Shown one piece after another: positions 47,957 to 64,000 of a stretch of DNA of 64,000 nt. How positions within the stretch are numbered: position 1 is the stretch's first letter; every line of letters begins with the position of its first letter. Position numbers and translations under genes: made by a program. This DNA comes from Actinomycetota bacterium (GTDB lineage: Bacteria; Actinomycetota; Actinomycetes; S36-B12; UBA5976): positions 36,310 through 100,309 of the forward strand of contig WLPX01000003.1 in NCBI GenBank assembly GCA_009698575.1, given 5' to 3'. The notes beneath the pieces are model-generated. The model had not been told where the DNA came from and searched no databases. It saw nothing but the letters and a program-made list of their open reading frames with translations.

Positions 47957-48742
47957 TTAAATGTCCTTTAACTCAACGATTCTGCCACGCTCGCCAGGCT
48001 GATCCGAGGTTGCTGGTCGGCCTTTAGTTCGCACCGTGATCCGGGTGCGATCCCCACGAAACAGGTCATGTGAGTACTCGATTTTGCGACCTTGGGTATC
48101 CATTGTGGTTCGGGTCACGGATAGTAAAGGAGATCCCAACGGGACTTCCAAGATTCGCGCTTCATCAGTTGTGGCATTTATTAAGTCAATTTGTTCAACA
48201 GCTTCATCAGGAACTGTTTCATAGTGTTTACCAAGTAATTCATAAATTGAATCACCTAGTGGCCTTTCTAATAGGCCCGGAAACATGTCCGCTGGAAATC
48301 TCGCGTGTTCTAGTGAAATTGGAATGCTATCTGCCAAACGAATTCGCACTACATCAAAAATATGTTCGCCCTCAGAAAGTCCCAAAGCCATTTGAGTCTT
48401 TAGATCCGCCGGCATAACCGAGGCGCTGATTAATTTCGTTCCTGCCGTAAAGCCTTGTCCCCGAAGTAATGATGGGACACCGACAATTTGCGATAAGTCT
48501 CGATCAAGTTTTTCGGAAGCAACAAATGTGCCACCGCCCCTACCTGGCAACCTTCGAACAATGCCTGTTTCTTCTAATGCAGAAAGTGCTAGTCGCAACG
48601 TGGATCGACTAACTTGATATTCAGCTGCGAGTTCGCGTTCAGCAATTAGTTTTTGACCTGGGCGAAGTTGACCAGTTGAAATCTGTCCCAAAATACGTTG
48701 GCGCACATCTTCGGCAGTGCGACCCAAATCGTTTTCGTTCAC
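47957..48742 (-). CDS. GntR-family regulator, HutC subfamily (UTRA effector domain)
   Basis: 261 aa. HTH region ERELAAEYQVSRSTLRLALSALEETG followed by a UTRA-like beta-rich C-terminal domain. GTG start. Confidence 0.8.
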   Translation of the reverse strand: MNENDLGRTAEDVRQRILGQISTGQLRPGQKLIAERELAAEYQVSRSTLRLALSALEETGIVRRLPGRGGGTFVASEKLDRDLSQIVGVPSLLRGQGFTAGTKLISASVMPADLKTQMALGLSEGEHIFDVVRIRLADSIPISLEHARFPADMFPGLLERPLGDSIYELLGKHYETVPDEAVEQIDLINATTDEARILEVPLGSPLLSVTRTTMDTQGRKIEYSHDLFRGDRTRITVRTKGRPATSDQPGERGRIVELKDI

Positions 48743-48766
48743 AGGACAACAGTAACTGCGTACTTG

Positions 48767-49549
48767 CTACATTGCTTCAAGCGCTGCAAGTGATTCGGGC
48801 AAAATTTGGCCGCCATCGATAACCAGAGCCTGCCCAGTTACATACGCCGCTTCTTTTGTTGCGAAAAAGAGTGCTGCGTTACCGATGTCATCAACTTCAC
48901 CAAGTCGACCTTGCGGAACTGATGCTTCCATTGCTTTTCGATACTCGGGACCCATGTCGGCTAAACCTTCAGTTGCAATGTTTCCTGGCAATACTGCGTT
49001 GACTGTTATCCCCTTCGGCGCGAGTTCAATCGCAGCGGTACGCATGAATCCAAGTTGCGCTGCTTTACTGGCTCCGTAATGTGACCAGCCTGGGAAGCCA
49101 GTAACTGGACCAGTGATTGATGACGTTAAAACGATTCGTCCGTGACCTGACTTTTCTAAAGCAGGCAAACAAGCCTGTACCGAAAGCATGGTGCCTTTTA
49201 CATTTGTGCCAAAGACTAAGTCCATATCAGCCTCTGACATCGTTGCCAATTTTGAATCTGGGAAAATTCCGGCATTAGCGCAAAGCACGTCAATGCCACC
49301 ATTGCGCTCGATGGCAGTTGCTGCAACGCGATCGCAATCTGCTTTACTGCTGACCTCGGCGATTAAGTAGGTAACAGTTCCGCCACCTAATCCAGTTAGT
49401 TCTGCGCAGGCAGACTTTGCACTCGCTTCATCACGGCCTGTTATTAGGACATTCGCTCCAGCTTTAGCAAAAACCCTGGCTATGCCTTTACCAATACCTT
49501 TAGTACCGCCAGTTACAACGACTGAGTATCCGGCTACTGATGTGAACAT
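48767..49549 (-). CDS. Short-chain dehydrogenase/reductase (candidate amino-alcohol dehydrogenase / aminoacetone reductase)
   Basis: [12 protein letters not shown] cofactor motif and catalytic YGASKAA. ATG at 49549, preceded by GGGAG, is preferred over the TTG at 49561 that begins the longest ORF. Confidence 0.85.
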
Positions 49550-49596
49550 TTGCACTCCCAATTTAGGTTTTTCAAGTTACGGAAAAGTATCTCTAA

Positions 49597-50586
49597 TTAT
49601 GCGAACTTAGACAGGTAGTTTTCGGCTAATTCACAACTTACTTTGGTGAAATTTGCGCCCATTTCTTTACCAGTGTCGGTATCTTGATGCGACCCAACCC
49701 AGGCAACCAGCAAGAGTCGGCGAAACAGTATGAAAGTTGGAAGTTCGACTTCCTCTTCTTTGCTGAGTGGAGAAACACTTCGGTAGCCATCTACCCATGA
49801 CGCAGTCATCTCGGGAACTAGTGGATGGTCTTCAATAAAGGAAACAGACGACCCAAGGTCGTACATAAACCAGCTAAGTCCGCAGTCATCAAAGTCAATT
49901 ACTGTTACGTCACTGCCTGCAACCAATAAATTAGCTAGCCGCATGTCTGCATGTACCAACCCAAATCGATCTTCACTTTTGCCGTAACGTTCCAGTCGCG
50001 ATTTGAGTGTGTCAGAAAGTCTGCCAAGGATTTCAAGTTCAGTTGGCCCCATAGCAAGTCCATCGCGCCAAGATCCCCAGTGACCATTTGGACCAAGCGC
50101 AGTTTCGTAGTCCCAAGTGAATCTAGAGAAGTTACTTGGACGGCTCCATTGCTTTGATTGATCATGCAGACGTGCAGTTATTGCGCCCAAAGTTTTGAAA
50201 TCATCAACCATGCGCTCTTCGGTAGGTTCAACACCCGGCATAAATTCAAACATCACCGCATGACGTTCTTCACCAGTTGAATCTTTCGCGAGAATGATTT
50301 GCTCACCTGAACCAGCAGGCAAAATTGCTGGGGTTCGAACCAATTGAATTTCGCGCAATGACTGCACCCAGTCAAGCTCACTTTGAATAGCTTGTTTCGA
50401 ATGGTAAAACGGTCGGTGGATTCGCAGAATCGTATCTAGACCAGTGGTGCTATCAGTGACCTTGAAGGTTGCATTCTCCGACAGGTTTAGTAGCGAAATC
50501 TTGGAATCCGCAGGATAGCCAAACTTCGCTACCGCATCTACGGCAAACTCTTGCAACTTTGTAGGTTCGTTCGAATACCCACTCAT
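49597..50586 (-). CDS. APH/choline-kinase-fold kinase (candidate amino-alcohol kinase)
   Basis: 329 aa. Brenner motif HADMRLANLLV and metal-binding IDFDD. Confidence 0.85.
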   Translation of the reverse strand: MSGYSNEPTKLQEFAVDAVAKFGYPADSKISLLNLSENATFKVTDSTTGLDTILRIHRPFYHSKQAIQSELDWVQSLREIQLVRTPAILPAGSGEQIILAKDSTGEERHAVMFEFMPGVEPTEERMVDDFKTLGAITARLHDQSKQWSRPSNFSRFTWDYETALGPNGHWGSWRDGLAMGPTELEILGRLSDTLKSRLERYGKSEDRFGLVHADMRLANLLVAGSDVTVIDFDDCGLSWFMYDLGSSVSFIEDHPLVPEMTASWVDGYRSVSPLSKEEEVELPTFILFRRLLLVAWVGSHQDTDTGKEMGANFTKVSCELAENYLSKFA

Positions 50587-50660
50587 TTAACTCTCCTACC
50601 AACACCTTTATTTTGGCTCACTTGCCAATTGGTTTTGTCACTTTTGGGGAAGAAAAATGT

Positions 50661-51317
50661 TTAACCTTGATCGCGTCCAACAACTGATTCGAGAGCTTTG
50701 GTAATTGCATCACGAGCCTTAGTTACACTTTCCGTTGAGCCACTCATGTAAACCCGTCCGGCTGCACCAATCATCTGTACATCAACCAAAGTCACATCTG
50801 GGGCAACTTTTTCGGCTTCATTAGCAGCCACAGTTGCAAACAACGCCGGTGTCATTTCATAAACCAACAGAGATTCACCTGGCATAACCATTGACGCTTG
50901 CCGATTGCGGTTGAGAATAATGGCATGTTGATCCGTGATGTTTTCAATAATGTCGCTGTAAAGAATCCGGGGACGTAATTGGTCAGCTGCTGAAGCGTTT
51001 ATGCCATCAAGGATCGCCTGACCAGCTCGCTTTACCAATTCAATGTCAGAAGCGTGAACTTCTAAAACACCAAACTGACGTTCCACGAACAAAATGCCAG
51101 GTTCAACTTCAGGTACCGACTTCAGCGCCAAGTCAATTACTCGCTCGATCGCAAGCCCGGGTGCTACCTCGATGATCAAAGAGTGCTGACCACCATATGG
51201 AGGGTAACCCCGAGCTCGCGTCGGCGTGCTCATATAAGCAGCAAATTGCTGCTGGAGCTCTTCAACAAGCAAGTAGACGCGTAGTTCGGGCCCTGCTACG
51301 AGCGGGCCCGCACTCAA
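50661..51317 (-). CDS. Tandem BMC-domain shell protein (BMC-T type), paralogue 1
   Basis: 218 aa with two internal BMC-like repeats ([20 protein letters not shown]...[15 protein letters not shown] and [20 protein letters not shown]...[16 protein letters not shown]). TTG start overlapping the BMC-H stop (TTGA). Confidence 0.8.
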
Positions 51318-51598
51318 GCGGACTCGCCTACTTTGAAGTACTTGCTTAGTTCTGCATGTGGACGTGGAATTACGTGCTGTGAAACTAGTTCGCCAACTTG
51401 GTTAACTGCTTCGGCACCTGCGTCAGTTGCAGCCTTAACTGCGCCGACATCACCCACGATGACAACAGTCACAAGACCGTCGCCAACTTCTTCACGCGCA
51501 ACAATAGTTACATTGGCTGCCTTAACCATGGCATCTGCAGCAGCAACTGCTGCAACATATCCCTTAGTCTCGATCAAGCCCAGTGCGTTGCTTGACAT
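51314..51598 (-). CDS. BMC-H hexameric shell protein (Pfam00936-type)
   Basis: 94 aa: [26 protein letters not shown]...[23 protein letters not shown], a canonical PduA/CcmK-like sequence. Strong SD AGGAGA upstream. Confidence 0.93.
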
Positions 51599-51680
51599 AT
51601 CTTTCTCCTATTTGTGATTGCAAACGGTTGTTTGCTTTCGGTTTATTCAGTCTTACTTGCCTGGTTTCCCAGGCGGTGTA

Positions 51681-51950
51681 CTAAGAAGCGCTGTGCTTCC
51701 CAGAACTCTTAGTGTCCTCATCAATCGAACCGATGATGAGAGCATCAATTGGCGGTGTTACGTCTGGGAACCAAGCTGCTGCTACTGAGCCAGTTGAAAC
51801 CAAAACGCTTTCCCCAATTCCGGAACCCAGAACGTCGAAAGCAACCAAGTGTGCGCCACCTTCAACTTCGACTTCGAGAAATGCCCCGTGGGGAATCTCA
51901 GTTAGACGACGGGTCGCCCATACATTGCCGATGACTCGAGCTTTTAACAT
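51681..51950 (-). CDS. BMC-P pentameric vertex protein (EutN/CcmL family)
   Basis: 89 aa: MLKARVIGNVWATRR...LVAFDVLGSGIGESVLVSTGS...IDALIIGSID, the typical EutN/CcmL pattern. Confidence 0.9.
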   Translation of the reverse strand: MLKARVIGNVWATRRLTEIPHGAFLEVEVEGGAHLVAFDVLGSGIGESVLVSTGSVAAAWFPDVTPPIDALIIGSIDEDTKSSGKHSAS

Positions 51951-52438
51951 CAGCGCATCACCGATCCCTTCTGATTATCTTGTTGACTTTCTTTTATGAT
52001 CGTCACACCTAAGTCGCGAGCTTTATCTCGCGCTAGTGATGTGACGACAACTTTGCGACCCACGATCAAAGTTGATCCGGATTCGGCAGCTTTTCTGATT
52101 GTTGACTCGGTAACAGCACCCTTTTCGATTCGGGTAGTCCCGCTATTATCTGCAACGTTAGCTTTCGCTTGGTCAGTTAACTGAAAAACGATTTCACCCT
52201 CGCGCAGCGCGCTCAGAGTTTTTGCATCTGCGGCCAAGTCAAGAATCCGATGCACAAAAGTTTGTACCTGAACGTCACTGGTCAAGGAAACCATTTCAAC
52301 AACTTGTGCTGGTTTTTGAGTAGGTGTCGCGTTGCCAGCTAAAGCTTTTGCAATGTCACTTGCCCCACTGGCGCCACCTAGCGCATCTCGCAGTGCTTCG
52401 CGGACGAGCGCCCGAAGCATTTCGTTATCTGTAGACAT
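51950..52438 (-). CDS. BMC-locus hypothetical protein with N-terminal encapsulation-peptide-like amphipathic helix
   Basis: 162 aa. EMLRALVREALRDAL (52379-52423), then a Gly/Ala/Pro/Gln linker, then a roughly 110-aa domain ending VVVTSLARDKARDLGVTI. Translationally coupled on both sides (TGATG). Confidence 0.6.
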   Translation of the reverse strand: MSTDNEMLRALVREALRDALGGASGASDIAKALAGNATPTQKPAQVVEMVSLTSDVQVQTFVHRILDLAADAKTLSALREGEIVFQLTDQAKANVADNSGTTRIEKGAVTESTIRKAAESGSTLIVGRKVVVTSLARDKARDLGVTIIKESQQDNQKGSVMR

Positions 52439-53037
52439 CAGCGCTCACTCAAAACTCGTTCAGCAACTTCAGCTGCCGCTCGAACATTTGCTTCTTTGCC
52501 AGATAAGTACACCCGACCAGTAGCGCCAATCATCCGGTAGTCAACAACTTTTATGTCAGTTGCCTTTTCCGCTTCATTAGTTGCCAAGATCGCATATGAC
52601 GCCGGTTGAACTTCCAATATGTACAAAGATTCACCCGGCAGAATCATCGAACCGACTTTGTTTCGATTGATAAGGAATGCATGCTGTTGATCCACGGATG
52701 GAACGACTCGGGAAGCCAAGATTTTAGGTTTTGTCGCTTCCGACTCAGATGTTCCAAGAGCTGCTAGTACTGCCTGACCGGCAGCGCGCACTTCTTCGGT
52801 TGGACCATGAATTTCTAGGTATCCGAAGGTTCGCTCTACGAACAAGATTCCAGCCTGAACATTTGCATGTTTTAGGGCAACGTCGGTCAACGCTTCAATG
52901 TCCAGACCAGGTGCAACTTCAATCACCTGGGCAGCCATGTTTGCGCGTGGCAAAGCTCCCTTAACCCATGAGCCCAAATAGCACATAGTTTGAGGTTGCA
53001 TCTGGTCGATATAGATGAACGACCGAAGCTCTGCCAT
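52438..53037 (-). CDS. Tandem BMC-domain shell protein (BMC-T type), paralogue 2
   Basis: 199 aa with two BMC-like repeats (VIEVAPGLDIEALTDVALKH...LEIHGPTEEVRAAG and ILEVQPASYAILATNEAEKA...VYLSGKEANVRAAAE). Collinear with the 218-aa paralogue. Confidence 0.8.
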   Translation of the reverse strand: MAELRSFIYIDQMQPQTMCYLGSWVKGALPRANMAAQVIEVAPGLDIEALTDVALKHANVQAGILFVERTFGYLEIHGPTEEVRAAGQAVLAALGTSESEATKPKILASRVVPSVDQQHAFLINRNKVGSMILPGESLYILEVQPASYAILATNEAEKATDIKVVDYRMIGATGRVYLSGKEANVRAAAEVAERVLSER

Positions 53038-53054
53038 GTATCTCTCTTCTCTAA

Positions 53055-54626
53055 TTAGTTCTTAATCAATGCGTGAAGTTCTTCGACAATCAGTTTCCGA
53101 ATTTCGTCGCGTAATTCTGCAACGTCTTGGGAAATTGGTTCACGATGAATCGGCGCAGGCACTTGGGCGTTGTTGCGATCATTTGAAGCCGTTGGGTAGG
53201 CCGGAACTGGTCCTGAAGGAGCTGTCCACGGATTCAAACCTGCAAACGTTGGCATTACTTCGCGCACGTCTGAGTTGTAAGCCAAGCGTGTGTAATTAAG
53301 TAAGTGTTTTGGTTGCAGGTTTTCGCCGACTGAAGATCGGCCGGCAAATCCAGTGCCAATTGTCATAGTTGGTGGCAAGTTTGTTTGGATTCCGGAGGCA
53401 CCAAGGCTGTTGCCCACATTCACCGAAACGCGTAGCACTGGAACCGCAGCGCTGAATTTCATAATTAGTTCTGGATTGGCGCTATGAATTGCGGCAGAGT
53501 GCCCTGCTCCGGTGATTCGTAAAATGGCGCGCGCAATATCAATGCCGCGCTCTGCAGTTGGAACTCGAACAAATCCCAAAACTGGACATAACTTTTCATG
53601 AGCAAAAGGTTCTTCAGGAACCACTAATTCAAACGGTGCGACCAAGGCTCTGGTTTTCGCCGGAACTTTTATGCCAGCTTGTTCTGCAATCCAAACGGCA
53701 TCTTTACCAACCATTTTTATGTTGAAGTGACCTTCTGGAAATACCGTGCTTCGAATTGCGTCGCGCTCTTCGTCTTTGAGAACATAGGCACCTTCACGGG
53801 CGAAAGCCAAAAGCAACTTATCTGCAATCGCTTCTTCTGCGATTACAACACTTTCGTTGGTGCACAAAATGGAGTTATCAAATGCCTTGCTCTCGATAAT
53901 TCGAGCTGCGGTTTTTTGGATGTCGGCTGTTGAATCAACTAAAACTGGAACATTTCCAGGACCCACGCCAATTGCTGGGTTTCCGCTGCGGTAAGCAGAT
54001 CGCACAACTGGGCTACCACCAGTAGCAACAATTACATCTGTGCGCTCATCGGTCATTAAGGCGTTAATTAATGGAATTGAAGGATCTTCCACAATTTGAA
54101 TGATTCCATCTGGGGCGCCCGCAGCAACTGCTGCTTCTGCCATTGCCTTGGCTGCTGCAACACAAACTTTCTTTGCCATTGGGTGCGGGCTAATGATGAT
54201 TGCGTTTCGAGTCATCAAAGCCAAAATGATTTTGAACGAAACTGTAGCAACCGGATTAGTGGAAGGCGTTAACGCCAGAACTACGCCAGCAGGCCTAGGA
54301 ATGGCAACAATTTTGTTAACTTCATCGATTTCTGGTGAAACAAAATCTTGACCTCGATAGGCATCAACAATTCCGGTAGAGCAAGCAACATTCTTTAGTA
54401 ACTTGTGTTCCGCTACACCAAAGCCAGTTTCCGCCACTGCATCACGTGCGAACTCTTGTGCCCGAGCGGCCAATGCCGAAGCTGCGGCATCAACAATTCG
54501 ATTAACTGTTGCTACGTCGTACTTTGCGTATGCTCGTGCAGCCCAATCAGCACGTTCGACCATGGCTCGCCCGCGAGGTACGCCGGCTGGTTCAACCATC
54601 AATGGTTCATAAGTCATTTCGCTCAT
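53055..54626 (-). CDS. CoA-acylating aldehyde dehydrogenase (PduP/EutE-like) with C-terminal encapsulation peptide
   Basis: 523 aa. Catalytic Cys in NSILCTNES. A Pro-rich linker is followed by the amphipathic helix DVAELRDEIRKLIVEELHALIKN (53058-53126). Confidence 0.88.
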   Translation of the reverse strand: MSEMTYEPLMVEPAGVPRGRAMVERADWAARAYAKYDVATVNRIVDAAASALAARAQEFARDAVAETGFGVAEHKLLKNVACSTGIVDAYRGQDFVSPEIDEVNKIVAIPRPAGVVLALTPSTNPVATVSFKIILALMTRNAIIISPHPMAKKVCVAAAKAMAEAAVAAGAPDGIIQIVEDPSIPLINALMTDERTDVIVATGGSPVVRSAYRSGNPAIGVGPGNVPVLVDSTADIQKTAARIIESKAFDNSILCTNESVVIAEEAIADKLLLAFAREGAYVLKDEERDAIRSTVFPEGHFNIKMVGKDAVWIAEQAGIKVPAKTRALVAPFELVVPEEPFAHEKLCPVLGFVRVPTAERGIDIARAILRITGAGHSAAIHSANPELIMKFSAAVPVLRVSVNVGNSLGASGIQTNLPPTMTIGTGFAGRSSVGENLQPKHLLNYTRLAYNSDVREVMPTFAGLNPWTAPSGPVPAYPTASNDRNNAQVPAPIHREPISQDVAELRDEIRKLIVEELHALIKN

Positions 54627-55978
54627 GCTGACCTGCGCTCATTACGGATTTCGGCATATGCTTTTCCAATTGCAAGCTCAGTGCGATCTAGCATTTCTTC
54701 GGCAACTTCTGGCTTTAACAAAATTCCTGGCTTGTATTGCAGCACTCGAGGATCAAGCGTGGAGAAGATTGCCCAAACGCCGTTTTCGTATAGATGGCGC
54801 ATTACGTACTTTGCGCCTTGTGGGTGTGCAAATTCCAAACCTAGAATCACGCCGTTTTGCCGGATGCCAATAAACCAATCTGGGTAAGTTGCCTGAACTT
54901 CTGCAAGCCGCATGCCAACGTAGTCGGCAATGTAATGAACCATTGATCGAGTTTCTTCGCGGGAACAAATTTCTAAAGTCTTGAGTGCTGCAATACATCC
55001 AAGTTCAGCGCCACCGAAAGTTGAAATGTGTCCGAAGCCATCTTCGTTCAACCAACCGGCTGCCTTTTCAGTTGCAAGAACAGCTGCGATTGGATACAGG
55101 CCACCCGAGATGCCCTTACCTGTGACAAGAATATCTGGAGTAATGCCGTGCTTAGTAATTCCCCAAAGTTCGCCAGTTCGCATCAAGCCGGTTTGAACTT
55201 CATCTGCGATGTATAGCGCGTCGTACTTTTCGCAAAGAAGTTTTACTGCTTCTAAGTAACCTGGGTTTGGCAGTGGGAAGCCATAAGTCGCTGGAATCGT
55301 TTCCATAATTACTGCAGCAACATCGCGACCCCGGAGCGCATCTTCCATAGCCTCTAAATCATTGAATGGCACATGCGGAAATTCTTCGGGACGATCTGAA
55401 AGAAATAGCTTGGAGAAGCGATCGTCGCCTGTACCTACGGCTAATCCAGTGTGGCCGTGATATGCCTTAATGATCGAAACAATTTTTCGTTTTTGCGTGG
55501 CATGACGTGCAGTCTTGAGTGCAATGTCAATGGCTTCACCTCCGCCGGATCCATAAATAACTTTGCTTAACCCAGCAGGGGCAGTTTTGATTAATGCCTC
55601 TGCTAACGCAGTTCTAGCAAGAGATGGGAAATGGTGGTTGCCAATATCAAAATGTTGCATTGCCATTGTTACGGCTTGCACAACTTCAGGATTACGGTGA
55701 CCTAAGTTATAAGTTCCACCGTTTAAGTGCGCATCAATCAGGCGCTTACCTGACATGTCATAAATGAAATATTCTTCGCGCCGATCAATTACCAGCGGCA
55801 CTCCAGAGTCAATCCAGAATTGAGTTTTACCCGGATTCCAAAATTCTTTGGACTTATCAAGCATCTGCTCTTTGGAGTCATATGAAAAAAGTCCGTAGTC
55901 GAATTCGGGGGCAGCAACTTGTTCTTGGGTCATCCCGAAACCTTTCGCTCTCTCCTGGAATCTGTATTTACAGATCAC
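54623..55978 (-). CDS. Class-III aminotransferase-fold PLP enzyme (candidate amino-alcohol O-phosphate phospho-lyase)
   Basis: PLP lysine in DILVTGKGISGG and DEVQTGLMRTG. The likely true start is ATG 55933 (MTQEQV, preceded by GAAAGG) rather than 55978. ATGA overlap with the AldDH. Confidence 0.85.
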   Translation of the reverse strand: MICKYRFQERAKGFGMTQEQVAAPEFDYGLFSYDSKEQMLDKSKEFWNPGKTQFWIDSGVPLVIDRREEYFIYDMSGKRLIDAHLNGGTYNLGHRNPEVVQAVTMAMQHFDIGNHHFPSLARTALAEALIKTAPAGLSKVIYGSGGGEAIDIALKTARHATQKRKIVSIIKAYHGHTGLAVGTGDDRFSKLFLSDRPEEFPHVPFNDLEAMEDALRGRDVAAVIMETIPATYGFPLPNPGYLEAVKLLCEKYDALYIADEVQTGLMRTGELWGITKHGITPDILVTGKGISGGLYPIAAVLATEKAAGWLNEDGFGHISTFGGAELGCIAALKTLEICSREETRSMVHYIADYVGMRLAEVQATYPDWFIGIRQNGVILGLEFAHPQGAKYVMRHLYENGVWAIFSTLDPRVLQYKPGILLKPEVAEEMLDRTELAIGKAYAEIRNERRSA

Positions 55979-56289
55979 CTGATCAAATGATTACACAGAA
56001 TTAGACCAAAAGACCATACCTTTTAGCAACTTTTGGTTGAATTTTGGTTTAACAACTAAAACCCTATAAATCCACAGTTTTACTGGCTAGTAAGTCCGAT
56101 TTGTCGCTTTCTGTGTTGATTTTTATACCAAATAGAATTTTCTGTTGACCAAAAAAATGGACAAAACTCATTCAATTTCATTGTTTTGGGGTTTGGTTTC
56201 TGGCAAAGTCGAACCAACCGTGTGACTGAGGTCACCGCAAGTGAGCAATGTCGGGAGTTCCTCGACGTTAAAACGAAAGGGTCGAATGC
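55979..56289. promoter_or_regulatory. Divergent control region between the BMC operon and the permease gene
   Basis: 311-bp AT-rich spacer. It holds the direct repeat AGACCAAAAGACCA (56003-56016), TTTTGGTTGAATTTTGGTTT (56031-56050), further ACCAAA copies, and the palindrome GTGAC-TGAG-GTCAC (56222-56235). Confidence 0.45.
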
Positions 56290-57870
56290 ATGTCGACAAA
56301 TAAAGATAGCCAACAAGGCCTTCGCAAAGGTGCCATTGGTTTGGTTGCGGTTCTATTTATGGCGGTAGCAAATGCTGCTCCGATCACTGCAATGAGCTTC
56401 AACATGCCTGTTGGTGTTGGTTGGGGTAACGGAATCGGTGCACCTGCCGGTTTCCTATTTGCAACGATCGTTTTATCGATTTTCTCAATCGGGTTCTCTG
56501 CCATGGCAAAGCGCGTTACAACTGCAGGCGCTTTTTACGGATTTATCTCTCATGGCCTAGGTCAAGTTTGGGGTATGGCGGCAGGTCTACTTGCTACCAT
56601 TTCGTACATTCTTTTCGAAGGTACCTTAATTGGTGGTTTTGCATTCTTCGCTTCAAACACCTTGAGTTCAATGGCTGGAATTGATGTCAACTGGTTGATA
56701 CTCGCAATCGGCGGCATGATCCTGATTTGGGTTTTGACTTATTTCGACATCACACTTGCTGCGGCAATTCTCAGCGTTACTTTGGTTGCTGAAGTGCTAT
56801 TACTTCTGGCTTTCGGCATCAGTGTTCTAGTTAAGGGTGGACCAGACGGATTCATGGTTTCTGAAACCATTTCCCCAATGGCTGCCTTTGGAAACCTTGA
56901 GGCTGGAGCATATGGATCGAGCGTTGCAGCTGGTACCGCAGCACTTGGTATCTTCTTTGCTTTCTGGTCATGGATTGGCTTTGAAACCACTGCTGCATAC
57001 GGTGAAGAGTCCAAGGATCCAAAGCACGTTGTCCCTCGCGCCACAATGATCGCCGTTATCGGACTTGGTGTGTTCTACACATTCGTTTCCTGGATGGCAG
57101 TTGTCGCAAACGGTGCAAAGACTTCTGTGGAAGTTGCTTCCGGATCCACTGGTAACCCAGTTGATCTTTGGTTAATCCCAGTTCAGGCAAATCTAGGTTC
57201 GCTTGCAGAAAGTACTTACCGAGTACTTTTGGTAATCGGTTCATTTGCTTGCGCCATGGCATTCCACAATGCTGCTTCACGCTACGTATTTGCACTTGGT
57301 CGCGAACTTCCATTTGCCGGAATCCGCACGCGTCTAGCAAGCACTCATCACAAGCATCAGTCACCAGCTGTGGCATCTACTGTGGTTACCGCAATCAACA
57401 TCGTTATGGTTCTCTTGTTTGCAACCTACTCAACTGCTTGGACTTCAGATCCAGCCGTTGCAGGCGCAACCTCAGACCCTAACTTGTTGCCATACGGAGT
57501 TATCTACACTGTTCCGTCACTTGTTGGAACTGCATTTATTCTGGTCGTTCAGGTAATCTGCTCATTTGCAGTTATCGGCTACTTCTGGGGTAAGAAGAAG
57601 CACAAAGGCAATGTTCTAACTACCTTGGTTGCTCCACTCGTTGGTGCAGCAGGCATGATCTACGCTTTAGTTCTGCTCTTCGCTGCAGTTGGTTCAGGCT
57701 TTGCCGCCGGTTACCAGTCAAACTCATTGATGGTTAAGTACCTGCCGCACGAAATTGCAGGAACTTTGATCTTCGGTTTGCTGTATGCCCTATGGGTCAA
57801 GTCCAAGCATCCAGAAATCTACGAAGAAATCGGTCGTACGACTATGGAAGAAGCTCACGAGCGCGTGTAA
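56290..57870 (+). CDS. APC-superfamily amino acid/amine permease
   Basis: 526 aa with about 12-13 TM helices. Typical APC N-terminal region GAIGLVAVLFMAVANAAPITAM. Confidence 0.85.
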   Translation: MSTNKDSQQGLRKGAIGLVAVLFMAVANAAPITAMSFNMPVGVGWGNGIGAPAGFLFATIVLSIFSIGFSAMAKRVTTAGAFYGFISHGLGQVWGMAAGLLATISYILFEGTLIGGFAFFASNTLSSMAGIDVNWLILAIGGMILIWVLTYFDITLAAAILSVTLVAEVLLLLAFGISVLVKGGPDGFMVSETISPMAAFGNLEAGAYGSSVAAGTAALGIFFAFWSWIGFETTAAYGEESKDPKHVVPRATMIAVIGLGVFYTFVSWMAVVANGAKTSVEVASGSTGNPVDLWLIPVQANLGSLAESTYRVLLVIGSFACAMAFHNAASRYVFALGRELPFAGIRTRLASTHHKHQSPAVASTVVTAINIVMVLLFATYSTAWTSDPAVAGATSDPNLLPYGVIYTVPSLVGTAFILVVQVICSFAVIGYFWGKKKHKGNVLTTLVAPLVGAAGMIYALVLLFAAVGSGFAAGYQSNSLMVKYLPHEIAGTLIFGLLYALWVKSKHPEIYEEIGRTTMEEAHERV

Positions 57871-57978: not shown

Positions 57979-59016
57979 ATGACACTAGAGATTTGCAATT
58001 GGGCGCCGGATGAAGATGCTGATCCAGCCACACACACTTTCACATTTGGTGGACGTGAGGGTGTAGTTAGCGTAAAGCCAGGAACCATAATTGATTCTTG
58101 GTCCTTTGACTGCTTTGGTGGCCGGGTTAAATCTGCCAGTGACATGTCAACACAAGTTTGTGACCCTAGGTTTCTAAATCCGCAAACCGGACCGTTCTAT
58201 GTCGAAGGTGCCGAGCCAGGTGACACCTTGGCGGTTCACTTCATTTCTATTGAACCCCGTGAGGCTTGGGGCGTTAGTACGACTGTGCCATTCTTTGGCG
58301 CGCTTACTTCAACGCCGACAACTGCAACTTTGCAACCCGCACTTTTAGAACGAACTTGGATTTATGAATTGGACTTAACTGAGCGCTTAGTTAGATACGC
58401 AGCAGCTGACACTAAGTTCACAGCCGCACTGCCATTAGATCCGATGCACGGCACCGTCGGAGTCGCGCCCGCACTTGGCGAAGTTCGCTCATCTTTAACT
58501 CCAGGTGACTGGGGCGGAAATATGGATACTCCTGAAATGCGCGCTGGCGTTACTTGTTATCTAGGCGTAAATGTTGAAGGTGCATTGTTTTCATTTGGCG
58601 ATGGACATGCGCGCCAAGGTGAAGGTGAAACTTGTGGTGTCGCCGTTGAGACTGCCATGGATACCGTACTGATAATCGATTTGATCAAGGGAACTCCAAC
58701 GCCTTGGCCGCGTATTGAATCCGACGATTACATAATCACCACTGGCTCAACCAAGCCACTGGAAGATGCATTCCGAATCGCACATTCCCAGATGGTTCAT
58801 TGGGTTAGCGAACTAACCGGCCAATCAACTTTGGATAGTTATCAGTTCGTTTCGCAAACCGCTTTGACTCCAGTGGCAAATGTGGTTGATACCAACTACA
58901 CGATGGTTGCTAAAGTCGCCAAGGAATACTTAGGTAGTGTGAACGTAATGCAAGGAATGCATCACAAAATGCGAGCCAAAGCAGCGCAGTGGCAAACGTA
59001 TAAGAAAGGCAACTAA
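57979..59016 (+). CDS. Acetamidase/formamidase-family amidohydrolase
   Basis: 345 aa. FmdA/AmdA-like features: NPQTGPFYVEGAEPGDTLAVH and GNMDTPEM...GDGHARQGEGE. Confidence 0.75.
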   Translation: MTLEICNWAPDEDADPATHTFTFGGREGVVSVKPGTIIDSWSFDCFGGRVKSASDMSTQVCDPRFLNPQTGPFYVEGAEPGDTLAVHFISIEPREAWGVSTTVPFFGALTSTPTTATLQPALLERTWIYELDLTERLVRYAAADTKFTAALPLDPMHGTVGVAPALGEVRSSLTPGDWGGNMDTPEMRAGVTCYLGVNVEGALFSFGDGHARQGEGETCGVAVETAMDTVLIIDLIKGTPTPWPRIESDDYIITTGSTKPLEDAFRIAHSQMVHWVSELTGQSTLDSYQFVSQTALTPVANVVDTNYTMVAKVAKEYLGSVNVMQGMHHKMRAKAAQWQTYKKGN

Positions 59017-59450
59017 TGCCAAGGGTAGAACGCATGGAAATTGATTTAGCGCTCGCAATTGAAATGACCAATGCTGCTAAAGCTAAAGCAATTGAAATTA
59101 ATGCCCCCATGTCAATTGCCGTGCTTGACGCAGGTGCAAATCTGCTTAGCTTTCAGCGCATGGATGGCGCCGAACTTGCGGGGCCTAATTTGGCAGTTGA
59201 TAAGGCTTACACGTCAGTAACAAATCGAATTGAGACTGGCGACTTGCGAGCGCGAGTTGCACCTGATGGTGACCTGCCAGGCATGAACGCAAACGGTAAC
59301 GGTCGTTACATCGCATTCGCTGGCGGTATTCCGTGTTGGGATGGCGATCGCGTAATTGGAGCCATCGGAGTAAGTGGTGGCTCATGGGATGAAGATCAAA
59401 TATGTGCCCAGGCTGGAATTGAAGTATTTAAGCGAGCATGCCAGGCATGA
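59016..59450 (+). CDS. GlcG/DUF336 (PduO C-terminal-domain-like, putative haem-binding) protein
   Basis: 144 aa: ISIAVLDAGANLLSFQRMDGA...DKAYTS...GAIGVSGGSWDEDQ. TAATG junction with the amidase gene. Confidence 0.8.
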   Translation: MPRVERMEIDLALAIEMTNAAKAKAIEINAPMSIAVLDAGANLLSFQRMDGAELAGPNLAVDKAYTSVTNRIETGDLRARVAPDGDLPGMNANGNGRYIAFAGGIPCWDGDRVIGAIGVSGGSWDEDQICAQAGIEVFKRACQA

Positions 59451-61687
59451 TTCCAAACGAGCCAATTGGCCGCTTTCGTTTTATGAACGAGCAGCGCGTC
59501 AATCTCGACGGTTTTGCAACTCCCGAACCTGAGTTAGGACTAGTTGCATTCAATGGCATAAACGATCCAGCTCCTTCATTGATAATCAATGCCGGACGCA
59601 TTGTGGAAATGGATGGTCGGGGCGAATCAGATTTTGATTCAATCGATGAGTTCATCGCCCGGCACGGAATTGACTTAAGTGTTGCCCAAGAAGCTATGGC
59701 AATCGACAGCACGGAGTTTGCTCGCAGACTCGTTGATCCCAATCATTCTCGAAAAAGCATTGTGCAACTTGCCTCTGGGATGACACCTGCAAAGTTAGCC
59801 GAGATACTTTCCCTACTTACTGCCGCAGAATTAGTTATCGCAATGACAAAAATGCGAGCAAGGCGTACGCCGAGTAATCAGGCGCATGTAACTAACAGGT
59901 CGGATGATCCGCTATTGCTTGCCGCTGATGCCGCAACTGCCGCCGCATTTGGATTTAGAGAACTTGAAACCACAGTTCCAGTTGCAGCCGATGCGCCATC
60001 TAATGCAGTTGCAGTATCAATCGGAGCGGCTGTTGGCTCGCCTGGCGTGCTAGTGCAGTGTTCGGTTGAAGAAGCCGCAGAGTTAGCCCTTGGCATGCGT
60101 GGATTAGTTTCGTACGCAGAAACGGTTTCGCTTTATGGAACTGAACAAATTTTTATCGATGGTGACGACACTCCGTGGTCTAAAGCATTTCTAACTAGCG
60201 CCTACGCCAGTCGTGGCATCAAAATGCGAGTTACTTCTGGTGGTGGTTCCGAAGCCCTGATGGGCGGTGCTGAAAAATGCAGCATGTTTTATCTTGAGGC
60301 GCGCTGCGTTGCGCTAGCTCGAGCAATCGGCGCACAAGGTGTGCAAAACGGTGGAATCGATTCAGCTTCAGTTGCTGGTGCCGTACCAGGTGGTGTTCGT
60401 TCCTTAATGGCAGAAAACGTAATGGTGATGTTGCGAAATCTCGAAGCTTGCACAGGTAACGACGCGCTAATGAGTGAATCTGACGTTCGGAGAACTTCGA
60501 GAACTCATCCAATTTTTATTGGCGGCTCCGACTTTATTAATAGTGGGTTTGGTTCAATCCAGCGCTACGACAATATGTTTGGGCCAAGTCAGTGGAATTC
60601 TGAAGACATCGATGATTTCTTGGCTATGCAACGCGACTGGGGTGTCGATGGTGGTCTTCGCACCGCAAATGAAGTCGAAGTTGCCAGATTACGGCGGCGC
60701 GCAACGGAAGCAGTAAGTGCGGTTTATTCCTGGTTGGGACTAGGCGATTTTTCCCAAGAGTGGGCCGAGCAGGCCATTGATGCGGCTGGCTCTAAAGATA
60801 TTTCTTCGGGCGACTTGATGCTTCCACTAACTGCAGCTCGCACAATTATGGAAACCAATGTAACCATGCTTGACGTCATCGCAGCCCTTGCCGAAAATGG
60901 TTTCGATCTAGAGGCGCAACGTTGCTTGGACATGCTTAAGGCTCGAGTTGCAGGTGACTACTTACAAACTTCAGCAATTTTCGACGAAGAAATGAATGTG
61001 CTTTCGCTAGTTACAGATCCAAATGAATACTCCGGTCCTGGAACGGGATATCAACCGACGCCTGCTCGACAGGCACAGATCGACACCATTAGACAGCAAC
61101 GTTCAGTTGCTGACTTACTTGTGGAACAAAAAAGTTTTGGAAACAAGAATATTTTTGCAACTGGATCTGCTGAAGTTAGTTACGACCCGCGTGATGTTGT
61201 TATCGGTGTCTCACCTGCCACTGGTAAAGACATTTGGGTCACACTCTCTGGTCTAAGTGTTGCCGATGCGATAACTGAAATCCTGGCTGGTCTCGAAGAA
61301 GAGGGTTGCGTTGGACGCATAGTTCGCATCAATGACTCACTTGATTTGGGCATGATCGGGTTAACTGCTGCCCGACTTTCCGGATCTGGTGTCAGCGTTG
61401 GATTGCAAGCAAAGGGAACTGCATTAATTCATCGCAGAGATTTAGCTCCACTGGCAAACCTCGAGTTGTATTCAGTTGCTCCGACAATTACGCGCGAGCT
61501 TTATCGCATGATGGGAATCAACGCTGGTCGCCATGCAAAGGGAGCTACGCCCGAACCAGTCCGCAATCCATATTCGGATGAAGCAATTGAAGCGCGCTAC
61601 CACACCAAAGTTGTTTCATTAGTTGCGATTGAACGTAATTGCGTAACTAAAGAAGTCCCAGAAGTTATGGAGCTGAGGAAGTCATGA
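59438..61687 (+). CDS. pduCD: Coenzyme-B12-dependent diol/glycerol dehydratase, fused large (alpha) + medium (beta) subunit
   Basis: 749 aa. Residues 1 to about 550 are collinear with PduC (MTPAKL, MRARRTPSNQAHVTN, DGDDTPWSKAFL, YLEARC, DNMF, GDYLQTSA). Residues from about 586 to the end are collinear with the PduD core (VVIGVSPATG...LSGSGVSVGLQAKGT...NLELYS). An alternative start at ATG 59447 gives an ATGA overlap with the DUF336 gene. Confidence 0.9.
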   Translation: MPGMIPNEPIGRFRFMNEQRVNLDGFATPEPELGLVAFNGINDPAPSLIINAGRIVEMDGRGESDFDSIDEFIARHGIDLSVAQEAMAIDSTEFARRLVDPNHSRKSIVQLASGMTPAKLAEILSLLTAAELVIAMTKMRARRTPSNQAHVTNRSDDPLLLAADAATAAAFGFRELETTVPVAADAPSNAVAVSIGAAVGSPGVLVQCSVEEAAELALGMRGLVSYAETVSLYGTEQIFIDGDDTPWSKAFLTSAYASRGIKMRVTSGGGSEALMGGAEKCSMFYLEARCVALARAIGAQGVQNGGIDSASVAGAVPGGVRSLMAENVMVMLRNLEACTGNDALMSESDVRRTSRTHPIFIGGSDFINSGFGSIQRYDNMFGPSQWNSEDIDDFLAMQRDWGVDGGLRTANEVEVARLRRRATEAVSAVYSWLGLGDFSQEWAEQAIDAAGSKDISSGDLMLPLTAARTIMETNVTMLDVIAALAENGFDLEAQRCLDMLKARVAGDYLQTSAIFDEEMNVLSLVTDPNEYSGPGTGYQPTPARQAQIDTIRQQRSVADLLVEQKSFGNKNIFATGSAEVSYDPRDVVIGVSPATGKDIWVTLSGLSVADAITEILAGLEEEGCVGRIVRINDSLDLGMIGLTAARLSGSGVSVGLQAKGTALIHRRDLAPLANLELYSVAPTITRELYRMMGINAGRHAKGATPEPVRNPYSDEAIEARYHTKVVSLVAIERNCVTKEVPEVMELRKS

Positions 61688-62049
61688 ATTTACAAATTGG
61701 TTTTTCCGGAAAGAATGTCTCTGAAGTTACGGTTGAATCAATTCGTCGCGGAGACATAACTCTCGATGACGTACGAATTCATCCGAGTACTTTGTCGCAT
61801 CAAGCTGACGTTGCCCGCGAAAATGGCAATCCTCAACTCGCGGAGAATTTTCTGCGGGCCGCAGAATTGACTGGGCTGCCAGATGAAACGGTTTTGCGAT
61901 ACTACGACGCACTCCGTCCCGGCCGATCGACTGCACAAGATTTACTTCAAATTGCTGATGATTTGGCAGCCATTGGCGCAGTCAAAAACTCCGAATTGTT
62001 TCGCCAGGCTGCAGATGTCTATGCTCGCCGCGGGCTTACCGCAAAATAG
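61684..62049 (+). CDS. pduE: Diol/glycerol dehydratase small (gamma) subunit, short form
   Basis: 121 aa: DDVRIHPSTL..QADVARE...NFLRAAELTGLPDE..L.YYDALRPGRST, collinear with the PduE core. ATGA overlap with the fused alpha-beta gene. Confidence 0.88.
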   Translation: MNLQIGFSGKNVSEVTVESIRRGDITLDDVRIHPSTLSHQADVARENGNPQLAENFLRAAELTGLPDETVLRYYDALRPGRSTAQDLLQIADDLAAIGAVKNSELFRQAADVYARRGLTAK

Positions 62050-62054
62050 TCCTT

Positions 62055-63698
62055 ATGAAACTTGTCGCTGGGATAGATATCGGAAACTCAACGACAGAAA
62101 TCGTAATCTCAAATGGCGCTGAGCCAATTGCCTGGGATCGCAGGCCAACTCGAGGCATCAAGGGATCTGAAGCATCGGTAAAAGCGGCGCTATCACTCTT
62201 ACAAAACATCGAACGGGAACACAACCTAATCGCTACACAAGTTTCCGTCGCGCCATGGAATCCAGTGGAAACATTAACTTCCACAATTCATGAGCCACTA
62301 CCAAACACCGGAAAGTTGCAAATAATTAAAACTGCCCACCAAAGTGTTGTTGGCGATGGTTGGGTTGTGGGTAATCCGTGGCTGATTACCGAAGCAGTTA
62401 AGTCCAACGAATCAGCAATTGCTATCGTGCCATCAGGTACTGGATATGACATTGCTGCCAACATAATCAATCAAGCAATCGCGCAAGGTGCTCAAATCAC
62501 AGGTGTTGTAGTTGCAGATGACGAAGCAGTGCTAATTGCTAAGCGCGTTACAAAAAACTTGCCCGTAGTTGATGGGGCTGATACTGCCACCGCGCTGAGA
62601 GCTCGAAAGTTGTTTTTGGAAGTTAGGCCGCAAAGCACCACGGTGCAGGCTGCGACTGACATTTGGGCGCTGCGGGCGGCACTAGAACTAACTGAAGATG
62701 AAGCAACACCGCTATCTGAAATAGTTCGTTGGGTTAGAAATGATCGCACGGTTTTGATCGGTCTGTTTGCAGATACCAAGAGCTCGATTGAAATTCAAAA
62801 TGGTTTTGTTACTTGGCGCGATTACACGAAATTGGATCTATTCGATGCAGTCTCACAAATGTCGAATTCCCAAATTGGCGACATCACACAGCTAAATATT
62901 CCTGATGCAGTTTTAACATCCGATGTTTGGGCCTTTGACATCACTAAGGTTTTGGCAGAACGTGGGCTACGCCAAGTTGGGCACACTCGAGACTTGGCAA
63001 TAGCTCAACTTGCAGCATCCAGCATTGAAACTCCAAATGACTTATCAGAAATATTTGGAGTGCCAGTAGTTGTGGCACAATCCGAAGCCCAAGCTGCCAA
63101 GTTAGGCGCGCACAGTACGCCAGGTCTGGCATTAGACGCGGCAGTTTTAGACATCGGTGGCGGCACCATTGATTTGATCAGCACAGTTGAGTTATCAGCT
63201 GCCGGCGCTGGTGAATTGCTAACAGCAGCAGTTGCCTTTGCTTTAGATACTTCGCGTGGTGCGGCAGATTGGATTAAGCGTGGTCCAGCCCAGCGGTTAG
63301 AGTCGCCGCATCTATTGCTTGCTGAAGATGGAAGTAAAGCCTTCACTGAAGAATCTAAGCCTTATCCAGCATCTGCAATGGGTTCGTTAATCGCCCCTGG
63401 GCCCGCTGGTTATCTGACGTTTGGGCAAAATCTGCAACCAGCTGAATGGCGCATCATGCGTCAAGCGTTAAAGCAAGCAGCTATCGGGGCAAATGTGGCG
63501 CGACTAATTAGAAGTATCGCCGGCAATGGAAATGCTGGTCCAAGTTTGAACCTAGTAGTAGTCGGTGGGCCAGCAGCAGACGATGAACTCATCCCGATTT
63601 TGAGTCAAGTTATGGGAATCACTGCAATTGGCAGAGGAAATGTTGCCGGAAAACTCGGTCATAGGTACGCCGTTGCCTATGGCTTATCTCAACTTTAA
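62055..63698 (+). CDS. pduG: Diol dehydratase reactivase large subunit (PduG/DdrA-like)
   Basis: 547 aa. N-terminus MKLVAGIDIGNSTTEIV and a second phosphate motif LDIGGGTIDL (ASKHA fold). Confidence 0.85.
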   Translation: MKLVAGIDIGNSTTEIVISNGAEPIAWDRRPTRGIKGSEASVKAALSLLQNIEREHNLIATQVSVAPWNPVETLTSTIHEPLPNTGKLQIIKTAHQSVVGDGWVVGNPWLITEAVKSNESAIAIVPSGTGYDIAANIINQAIAQGAQITGVVVADDEAVLIAKRVTKNLPVVDGADTATALRARKLFLEVRPQSTTVQAATDIWALRAALELTEDEATPLSEIVRWVRNDRTVLIGLFADTKSSIEIQNGFVTWRDYTKLDLFDAVSQMSNSQIGDITQLNIPDAVLTSDVWAFDITKVLAERGLRQVGHTRDLAIAQLAASSIETPNDLSEIFGVPVVVAQSEAQAAKLGAHSTPGLALDAAVLDIGGGTIDLISTVELSAAGAGELLTAAVAFALDTSRGAADWIKRGPAQRLESPHLLLAEDGSKAFTEESKPYPASAMGSLIAPGPAGYLTFGQNLQPAEWRIMRQALKQAAIGANVARLIRSIAGNGNAGPSLNLVVVGGPAADDELIPILSQVMGITAIGRGNVAGKLGHRYAVAYGLSQL

Positions 63699-63797: not shown

Positions 63798-64000
63798 ATG
63801 GCTACTACCGTTTGGCATAACGGCAAAGTGTGGATTAATGAAAATGAATCATCAGATGCGATTGCAGCATCTGATGGTGTAATCGTTGCTCACGGTGCAG
63901 ATGCGCTTGCCTTGCAGGCCGATGAAAAAATTGACCTTAACGGCGCCACTTTGTTGCCAGGTTTTGGTGATGGTCATGCGCATCCAGTTTTTGGTGGTAC
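63798..64000 (+). CDS. Amidohydrolase-family (YtcJ-like metal hydrolase) protein, N-terminal fragment running off the window
   Basis: Not in the ORF track. ATG 63798, preceded by AAAGGGAG, translates to MATTVWHNGKVWINENESSDAIAASDGVIVAHG...IDLNGATLLPGFGDGHAHPVFGG (HxH metal motif). Confidence 0.65.
   Translation, partial: MATTVWHNGKVWINENESSDAIAASDGVIVAHGADALALQADEKIDLNGATLLPGFGDGHAHPVFGG

Follow-up and report, generated by a model that had tools for sequence, protein, structure and literature searches.

Does the dehydratase locus of an Actinomycetota bacterium encode the large (alpha) and medium (beta) subunits of an adenosylcobalamin (AdoCbl) diol/glycerol dehydratase as one polypeptide and, if so, how are the two parts joined? 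The locus lies in a 64,000-nucleotide stretch of assembly GCA_009698575.1 (contig WLPX01000003.1, positions 36,310 to 100,309), hereafter called the window, and all coordinates given below are those of the window. The classical enzymes, namely PduCDE of Salmonella, PddABC of Klebsiella oxytoca and DhaB123 of K. pneumoniae (Protein Data Bank (PDB) entries 1dio, 1iwp and 1mmf), differ in being built from three separate polypeptides and in having a two-subunit reactivase. A preliminary description of the window had reported a single 749-residue open reading frame (ORF) carrying both subunits, and the results presented here confirm it through an unbroken frame and through Pfam and NCBIfam domains. 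With a probability of roughly 85%, we regard the gene as a natural, evolutionarily stable alpha-beta fusion of an AdoCbl diol/glycerol dehydratase, likely paired with a separate small (gamma) subunit.

The fused gene and its reading frame

The fused gene extends over 59438..61687 (+), that is, 749 codons in one frame without a stop or a frameshift. Residues 12–557 matched the Pfam domain Dehydratase_LU (PF02286; E 2.4e-231, 769.5 bits against a cut-off of 25) and residues 608–705 matched Dehydratase_MU (PF02288; E 9.5e-24, 83.8 bits against a cut-off of 27). The NCBIfam large-subunit profile NF011979 covered residues 11–557 with 828.2 bits, above its cut-off of 788, and the medium-subunit profile NF011616 covered residues 567–739, which correspond to positions 38–209 of its 219. 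An AlphaFold2 model of the fused chain, run with a homologue alignment, reached a mean predicted local distance difference test (pLDDT) score of 90 and a predicted template modelling (pTM) score of 0.84. Its alpha part was superposed on 1mmf_A and 1dio_A with a target template modelling (TM) score of 0.97 and a root-mean-square deviation of 1.4–1.5 Å, while its beta part matched 1dio_B with a target TM score of 0.93 over 177 alignment columns (target length 179). The beta core gave target TM scores of 0.92–0.95 against 1dio_B, 1mmf_B and 5ysh_E. The profiles and superpositions place the large-subunit domain, a TIM barrel, at residues 12–557 (59471..61108, +) and the medium-subunit core, a Rossmann-like cobalamin-binding domain, at residues 586–739 (61193..61654, +).

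Alignment with the classical subunits, which the preliminary description had proposed, bore out the relationship, with 48–49% identity in the alpha part and 34–38% in the beta part; the folds are the same and the active-site residues are conserved. We take Gln141, His143, Glu170, Glu221, Gln296, Asp335 and Ser362 of K. oxytoca to be the Ca-binding and catalytic (Ca/substrate ligand) residues of the alpha subunit. By alignment these map to Q148, H150, E177, E228, Q303, D342 and S369 of the fused chain, the first six being invariant and S369 nearly invariant among 50 fused homologues. The gamma subunit is encoded directly downstream (61684..62049, +; 121 residues; PF02287, E 1.2e-34, 119.7 bits) by a gene that shares 4 bp with the 3' end of the fused gene, and its product covers positions 58–168 of a 174-position PduE-type profile.

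A single ORF could also be an artefact of sequencing or assembly, in which two neighbouring genes were merged by the loss of a stop codon or by an indel between them. The source genome is a 30-contig draft, and frame breaks do occur in two related loci from metagenome-assembled genomes (MAGs; L057 and L096), which would be in keeping with such an error. Against it, the same unbroken frame was observed in independent assemblies. The gene was present in 30 of 200 sampled other genomes of the same order, where all full-length matches formed a continuous frame over query residues ~1–747. A survey of the 80 best-matching species-representative genomes showed an intact fused ORF in 77; apart from the two broken frames, one locus was short at its 5' end, and only Clostridium magnum (L104) was unfused. 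The best 120 matches among 5.8 billion clustered proteins (81–99% identity, 661–759 residues; sources JGI, ENA, NCBI and Logan) all carried both Pfam domains in one chain, and the length of the junction is conserved across families. Because independent assemblies share the same continuous frame, an artefact is excluded for practical purposes and its probability is negligible.

Two apparent cases were reassigned as unfused during the survey. Clostridium magnum seemed fused from joined tblastn pieces and actually carries two ORFs of 554 and 197 residues. Another genome (G125), where both matches of the phylum search showed an 'open frame 797', was first taken as carrying a long-linker fusion and proved to contain a TGA stop followed by a new in-frame ATG.

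Some points weigh against the assignment of this protein as a fused diol/glycerol dehydratase. The NF011616 score of 158 bits is under the cut-off of 248, because profile positions 1–37 have no counterpart in the fused chain. Our literature search found no paper characterising any natural fused enzyme. Finally, the operon includes an FmdA/AmdA-family amidase and an amidohydrolase, and since these are foreign to the classical pdu/dha gene sets, the physiological substrate is uncertain.

Anatomy of the junction

The preliminary description had placed a linker of roughly 35 residues at 61085–61190, joining the end of the alpha subunit to a beta core that starts at DVVIGVSPATG. The location was right to within three codons: the peptide in question, QIDTIR...YDPR, comprises residues 547–585 (nucleotides 61076–61192), and DVVIGVSPATG begins at residue 586. 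The nature of the segment was misjudged, as the greater part of it corresponds by homology to the free subunits' own termini and is predicted to be ordered.

Comparison with unfused enzymes revealed the origin of both flanks. Unfused actinobacterial large subunits end in tails such as ...IKTIRQAISPDSI, directly followed by the stop codon, and tails of this type align with IDTIRQQRSVADL, residues 548–560 of the fused chain. Residues 547–563 (61076..61126, +), the first part of the supposed linker, can thus be assigned by this alignment to the alpha C-terminal tail. Free medium subunits, both long and short, carry a conserved arm right before their EVVIG motif, for example ...VGEAKVGTKADEVVIG, and this type of arm aligns with IFATGSAEVSYDPRDVVIG, residues 572–590 of the fused chain. 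The conserved beta N-terminal arm accordingly occupies residues 572–585 (61151..61192, +), an assignment that also draws on a predicted strand and on the 1dio_B match. The Klebsiella beta chains likewise align with the fused chain from the beta arm onward. As the beta part covers 177 columns of 1dio_B, whose length is 179, the arm belongs to the matched fold.

An entropy and indel scan of residues 536–600 across 50 fused homologues showed that high entropy and indels are confined to residues ~565–575, with the indel sites at 569–570. Conserved positions flank or border this stretch (R552, Q553, Q564, G576, A578 and P584). By column entropy and indel sites, the variable hinge is delimited to residues 564–571 (61127..61150, +), and the true linker would comprise only these variable residues, about eight in number. 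In the AlphaFold2 model, residues 547–563 had pLDDT values of 82–90 and the arm at 572–585 had values of 91–95, so that the junction blocks span 82–95 overall; helices were predicted at 542–549 and 557–565 and a strand at 572–577. The terminus alignments, the entropy scan and the ordered model therefore describe a nearly seamless joint that consists of the alpha tail, about eight variable residues and the native beta arm, and not a 35-residue flexible spacer.

The codons of the junction were compared in 10 congeners. The 39 codons contained no stop, frameshift or indel, and the differences among them comprised 128 synonymous and 106 nonsynonymous codon differences, a nonsynonymous-to-synonymous ratio of 0.83, as compared to 0.17 in the alpha domain and 0.14 in the beta domain. 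This pattern indicates a junction that is translated yet under weaker constraint than either domain.

In the crystal structures of the unfused enzymes, the alpha C-terminus and the beta N-terminus lie close together. In the fused chain, the C-terminal tail of alpha runs through the roughly eight variable residues into the conserved N-terminal arm of beta, and this chain would most likely assemble with the 121-residue gamma subunit into a putative (alpha-beta/gamma)2 enzyme. A helix of the junction, SVADLLVEQ, was considered as an internal encapsulation peptide and rejected. The motif is also conserved in the fused proteins of a genome (G111) in which shell genes and dehydratase genes sit on separate contigs, and the helix thus does not track the microcompartment.

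Known fusions, distribution and origin

The preliminary description treated the fusion as a novelty, which prior reports contradict. According to passages of PMC7674605, a natural dhaB1-dhaB2 fusion was reported in Mycobacterium smegmatis and Mesorhizobium loti (Liu et al., 2010; pmid 21224206), and a section of PMC4777399 adds Hyphomicrobium (Martins-Pinheiro et al., 2016). The relevant entries of PMC4881515 and PMC8088520 give three 'large subunit' genes for M. smegmatis but no medium subunit. As the fusion was already reported in these three genera, the implied novelty fails; the fused gene of the window, though genuine and conserved, is a typical representative of a kind already described. 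It carries little weight as a discovery, given that publications have described the fusion since 2010 and that the annotation of close homologues is routine. A modest descriptive value remains in the near-seamless joint, the wide spread, the probable repeated origin and the frequent link to amino-alcohol genes of the RMM microcompartment type.

The known natural systems resemble the window in their basic organisation. The fused enzymes of Mycobacterium (e.g., MSMEG_0497, MSMEG_1547 and MSMEG_6321), Mesorhizobium and Hyphomicrobium also combine one large-plus-medium gene with a separate small subunit. The window protein is 57–63% identical to the fused proteins of Mycobacterium/Mycolicibacterium, belongs to the same actinobacterial clade and has the same junction length. 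The window differs from the Mycobacterium-type systems in its host, a freshwater actinobacterium that is uncultured and has a genome of 1.7 Mb, and in its operon, which lies next to shell genes and contains genes for an FmdA-like amidase and a DUF336 protein. Fused enzymes of Alphaproteobacteria differ from that of the window in forming a separate clade and in having no reactivase homologue within 10 kb.

Artificial fusions offer a further comparison. PMC7674605 describes alpha-beta fusions engineered from the Klebsiella enzyme as active, in a passage that also proposes natural fused enzymes as candidates for glycerol bioconversion. The engineered K. pneumoniae glycerol dehydratases (Wang 2009; Gibson 2013, by stop-codon read-through; Maddock 2017) share the topology of the window protein, in which the alpha C-terminus is joined to the beta N-terminus. 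An engineered 754-residue chain, for which single-chain structures have been solved (PDB 9vi2, 9via, 9vig, 9vii and 9vij), aligns with residues 12–727 of the window protein (E 6e-203). The engineered fusions retain the whole beta N-terminus, preceded by an added linker or by the translated intergenic spacer, whereas in the natural fusion beta is trimmed to its conserved arm and the joint is shorter. A catalogue of natural junctions could therefore guide linker design.

The survey of spread proposed in the preliminary description showed, through the 80 species genomes, the tree and the metagenome proteins, a very wide distribution of the fused form. Of the 80 best-matching species genomes, only one lacked it, and the carriers belong to Actinomycetota and Alphaproteobacteria and include a Thermomicrobiales MAG. 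A search of 50%-identity representatives gave mostly fragments and otherwise added only a small number of divergent full-length sequences, some fused and some unfused. A maximum-likelihood tree was built from the alpha part of 81 fused and 7 unfused sequences, a small sample of the latter, and was rooted at its midpoint. The window protein fell in an actinobacterial clade of 70 fused sequences with a Shimodaira–Hasegawa-like approximate likelihood ratio test (SH-aLRT) support of 100, which includes Kineosporia, Streptosporangiaceae, Nocardioides, Mycobacterium/Mycolicibacterium and Thermoleophilia. The alphaproteobacterial fused enzymes formed a clade of their own, and two divergent fused proteins with different junctions were nested among unfused enzymes. 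The well-supported branches require at least three changes between the fused and the unfused state. The fusion thus likely arose more than once, as judged from this tree, though multiple origins are unproven because of the few unfused sequences and the midpoint root.

A few individual loci deserve mention. One divergent fused dehydratase (L111; G249:C15:39000-58500), with 44% identity and a different junction sequence, has its small-subunit gene upstream rather than downstream of the fused gene and no reactivase homologue within ~9 kb. Among the loci L026, L068 and L089, MAG contigs labelled 'Gammaproteobacteria bacterium' carry fused genes that are 79–81% identical to that of the window and nest in the freshwater actinobacterial clade, and a contig labelled 'Bifidobacterium breve' groups with Thermoleophilia; these contigs are probably mis-binned or mislabelled, rather than evidence of gene transfer. 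In another MAG, a second fused copy (L058:4771-9324, −) lies at the C-terminal end of an open frame of 1517 codons, in which the N-terminal extension of 770 codons may simply be high-GC sequence that lacks stops and precedes the true start.

Reactivase, microcompartment and substrate

The reactivase of the classical enzymes has two subunits (DdrAB, PduGH or GdrAB), and only a homologue of the large one was found here. It is a divergent protein of 547 residues (62055..63698, +; PF08841 and PF18427; TIGR04491; 2d0o_A, E 1.4e-28), ~60 residues shorter than DdrA/GdrA, and it scored 151 bits against TIGR04491, under the cut-off of 400. No small reactivase subunit of the DdrB/PduH type was found in the 92%-complete genome, in which the fused beta domain was the only match to PF02288, to the beta-domain profile and to a DdrB-specific profile. 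The latter profile detected the small subunit in five of five unfused control loci and a DdrB-like ORF downstream of the reactivase gene in the basal fused lineages (L086, L089–L092 and L094). These ORFs measured 96–139 residues, the match in L092 lying inside a 314-residue ORF call. The same profile found no DdrB-like ORF in the loci of the crown clade to which the window belongs. A strict coupling of the fusion to the loss of the small subunit had been suggested by the beta-domain profile, which detected DdrB-like ORFs in unfused loci only, and it was overturned by the DdrB-like ORFs of the basal fused lineages. Because these lineages keep such an ORF, the profile matches indicate that the small subunit was lost after the fusion and that the fusion did not require its loss.

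Bacterial microcompartment (BMC) genes lie close to the dehydratase. A complete RMM-type amino-alcohol gene set (47957..57870) is transcribed divergently from the dehydratase operon and consists of GntR, SDR, APH kinase, BMC-H, BMC-P, BMC-domain protein, aldehyde dehydrogenase and class III aminotransferase genes on the reverse strand, with a permease gene on the forward strand. The three BMC-domain genes, encoding BMC-H (51314..51598, −), BMC-P (51681..51950, −) and a further BMC-domain protein (52438..53037, −), are situated 6–8 kb upstream of the dehydratase on the opposite strand. Two ORFs of the shell block, at 50661..51317 (218 residues) and 51950..52438 (162 residues), had no Pfam match. 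Axen et al. (2014; PMC4207490) describe, in the part of the paper on this locus type, RMM2 as RMM1 genes accompanied by diol dehydratase genes on the opposite strand, and by that definition the gene content classes the present locus as RMM2. It resembles the RMM2 loci of that paper and of Sutter et al. (2021; PMC8217296) in the RMM set and the opposite-strand dehydratase genes, and it differs in lying outside Mycobacterium/Rhodococcus; the searched passages of both papers are silent on the dehydratase being a fused alpha-beta chain. The shell-containing RMM-plus-dehydratase arrangement was tallied in ~38 of the 80 related loci, the GntR–SDR–kinase–aminotransferase genes occurred without shell genes in ~8, and the remainder had none of them within 10 kb. 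In two genomes (G401 and G416), the shell genes are ~7 kb from the dehydratase and arranged as in the window.

The fused enzyme, together with gamma, would dehydrate a vicinal diol, presumably 1,2-propanediol and possibly glycerol or ethylene glycol, to an aldehyde. Such an aldehyde would be an intermediate of the same kind as the one on which the aldehyde dehydrogenase of the neighbouring RMM-type microcompartment acts, and the enzyme would act either in the cytosol or inside the shell.

Encapsulation peptides are extensions at the N-termini of PDU-type PduD and PduE, and PduD's peptide is described as sufficient for packaging in Pdu systems in a section of PMC4594438. The preliminary description had argued that the fusion removes the beta N-terminus that bears this peptide. 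A PduD-type extension is indeed absent from the window chains, as homology to the medium subunit sets in only at profile position 38, immediately behind the alpha tail, and both gamma, from position 58 of its profile, and alpha, from residue 11–12, likewise have no N-terminal extension; the absence is, however, no consequence of the fusion. Going further, one might propose that the fusion evolved in order to delete the peptide, so that the dehydratase was excluded from the neighbouring microcompartment or re-routed to it. Fused chain and gamma alike lacking the extensions of PduD and PduE fits this idea, as does the presence of microcompartment genes at a distance of 4–8 kb in the window, and the unfused actinobacterial medium subunits at loci with shell genes (L106 and L107) bear an amphipathic N-terminal helix followed by a long Pro/Ala/Thr-rich linker. 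The fused form, however, is also found away from shell genes: two genomes carrying it (G152 and G249) had no BMC-domain match, G111 has its shell genes on another contig, and roughly half of the 80 fused loci lack a shell gene within 10 kb. Moreover, the short unfused medium subunits of loci without shell genes (L104, L108 and L109; 192–197 residues) also have no N-terminal peptide, and a passage of Aussignargues et al. (2015; PMC4594438) already noted a Mycobacterium PduE without an N-terminal extension. Since the fused form is common without a microcompartment and the short free beta is also peptide-less, the missing peptide is probably an ancestral DhaB2-like state and not a product of the fusion, as far as the compared termini suggest, and selection for its deletion is improbable.

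The reactivase raises a related question, namely whether tethering beta to alpha made the small reactivase subunit (DdrB/PduH/GdrB), which mimics beta, dispensable, so that it was lost and a simplified reactivase became coupled to the fusion. The absence of a DdrB-like gene from the nearly complete genome is in line with this, as is the failure to detect the ORF in crown-clade loci as against its presence in every unfused control. Yet the basal fused lineages retain it, the correlation reflects one loss in one clade and so carries no statistical weight, and a very divergent small subunit could escape detection; we consider the coupling doubtful, and any functional link between the fusion and the simplification of the reactivase is speculative. 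Also doubtful is the picture that, in the crown clade, the tethered beta docks on the single-subunit 547-residue reactivase in a simplified form of subunit-swap reactivation, and that the peptide-less enzyme may feed or enter the RMM shell and make the compartment bifunctional. The gene neighbourhood also invites the idea that the substrate in vivo is not a diol but an amino alcohol or some other metabolite in the aminoacetone/1-amino-2-propanol pathway. The GntR, SDR, APH kinase and class III aminotransferase genes recur beside fused genes, even in loci without shell genes (e.g., L049, L060, L066, L069, L073 and L079), and SDR and APH homologues are also near several alphaproteobacterial fused genes. 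The conservation of the Ca-binding and catalytic positions for two vicinal hydroxyls speaks for a diol instead, the kinase/phospho-lyase route already explains amino-alcohol deamination, and many fused loci have none of these neighbours, which makes an amino-alcohol substrate quite unlikely.

The remaining genes of the operon and a possible cofactor supplier were also located. The operon opens with the gene for the FmdA/AmdA-family amidase, followed by a DUF336/HbpS-like gene (57979–59450 for the pair); the latter (59016..59450, +; PF03928, E 1.5e-33) has the fold of the PduO C-terminal domain and overlaps the start of the fused gene. At the 3' side lies an Amidohydro_3 gene (63798–64000), which is cut by the end of the contig 237 nucleotides beyond the window. 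In a 92%-identical MAG from Lac Pavin (L025:14337-18341), urease-like gamma-beta and alpha subunits are encoded among the downstream genes. The amidase is restricted, within the 80 related loci, to the near relatives of the window. A gene for a PduO-type ATP:cob(I)alamin adenosyltransferase lies on the same contig (~16275–16781, +; PF01923, E 2e-60); it is the only such match in the genome, and its product could supply AdoCbl to the dehydratase.

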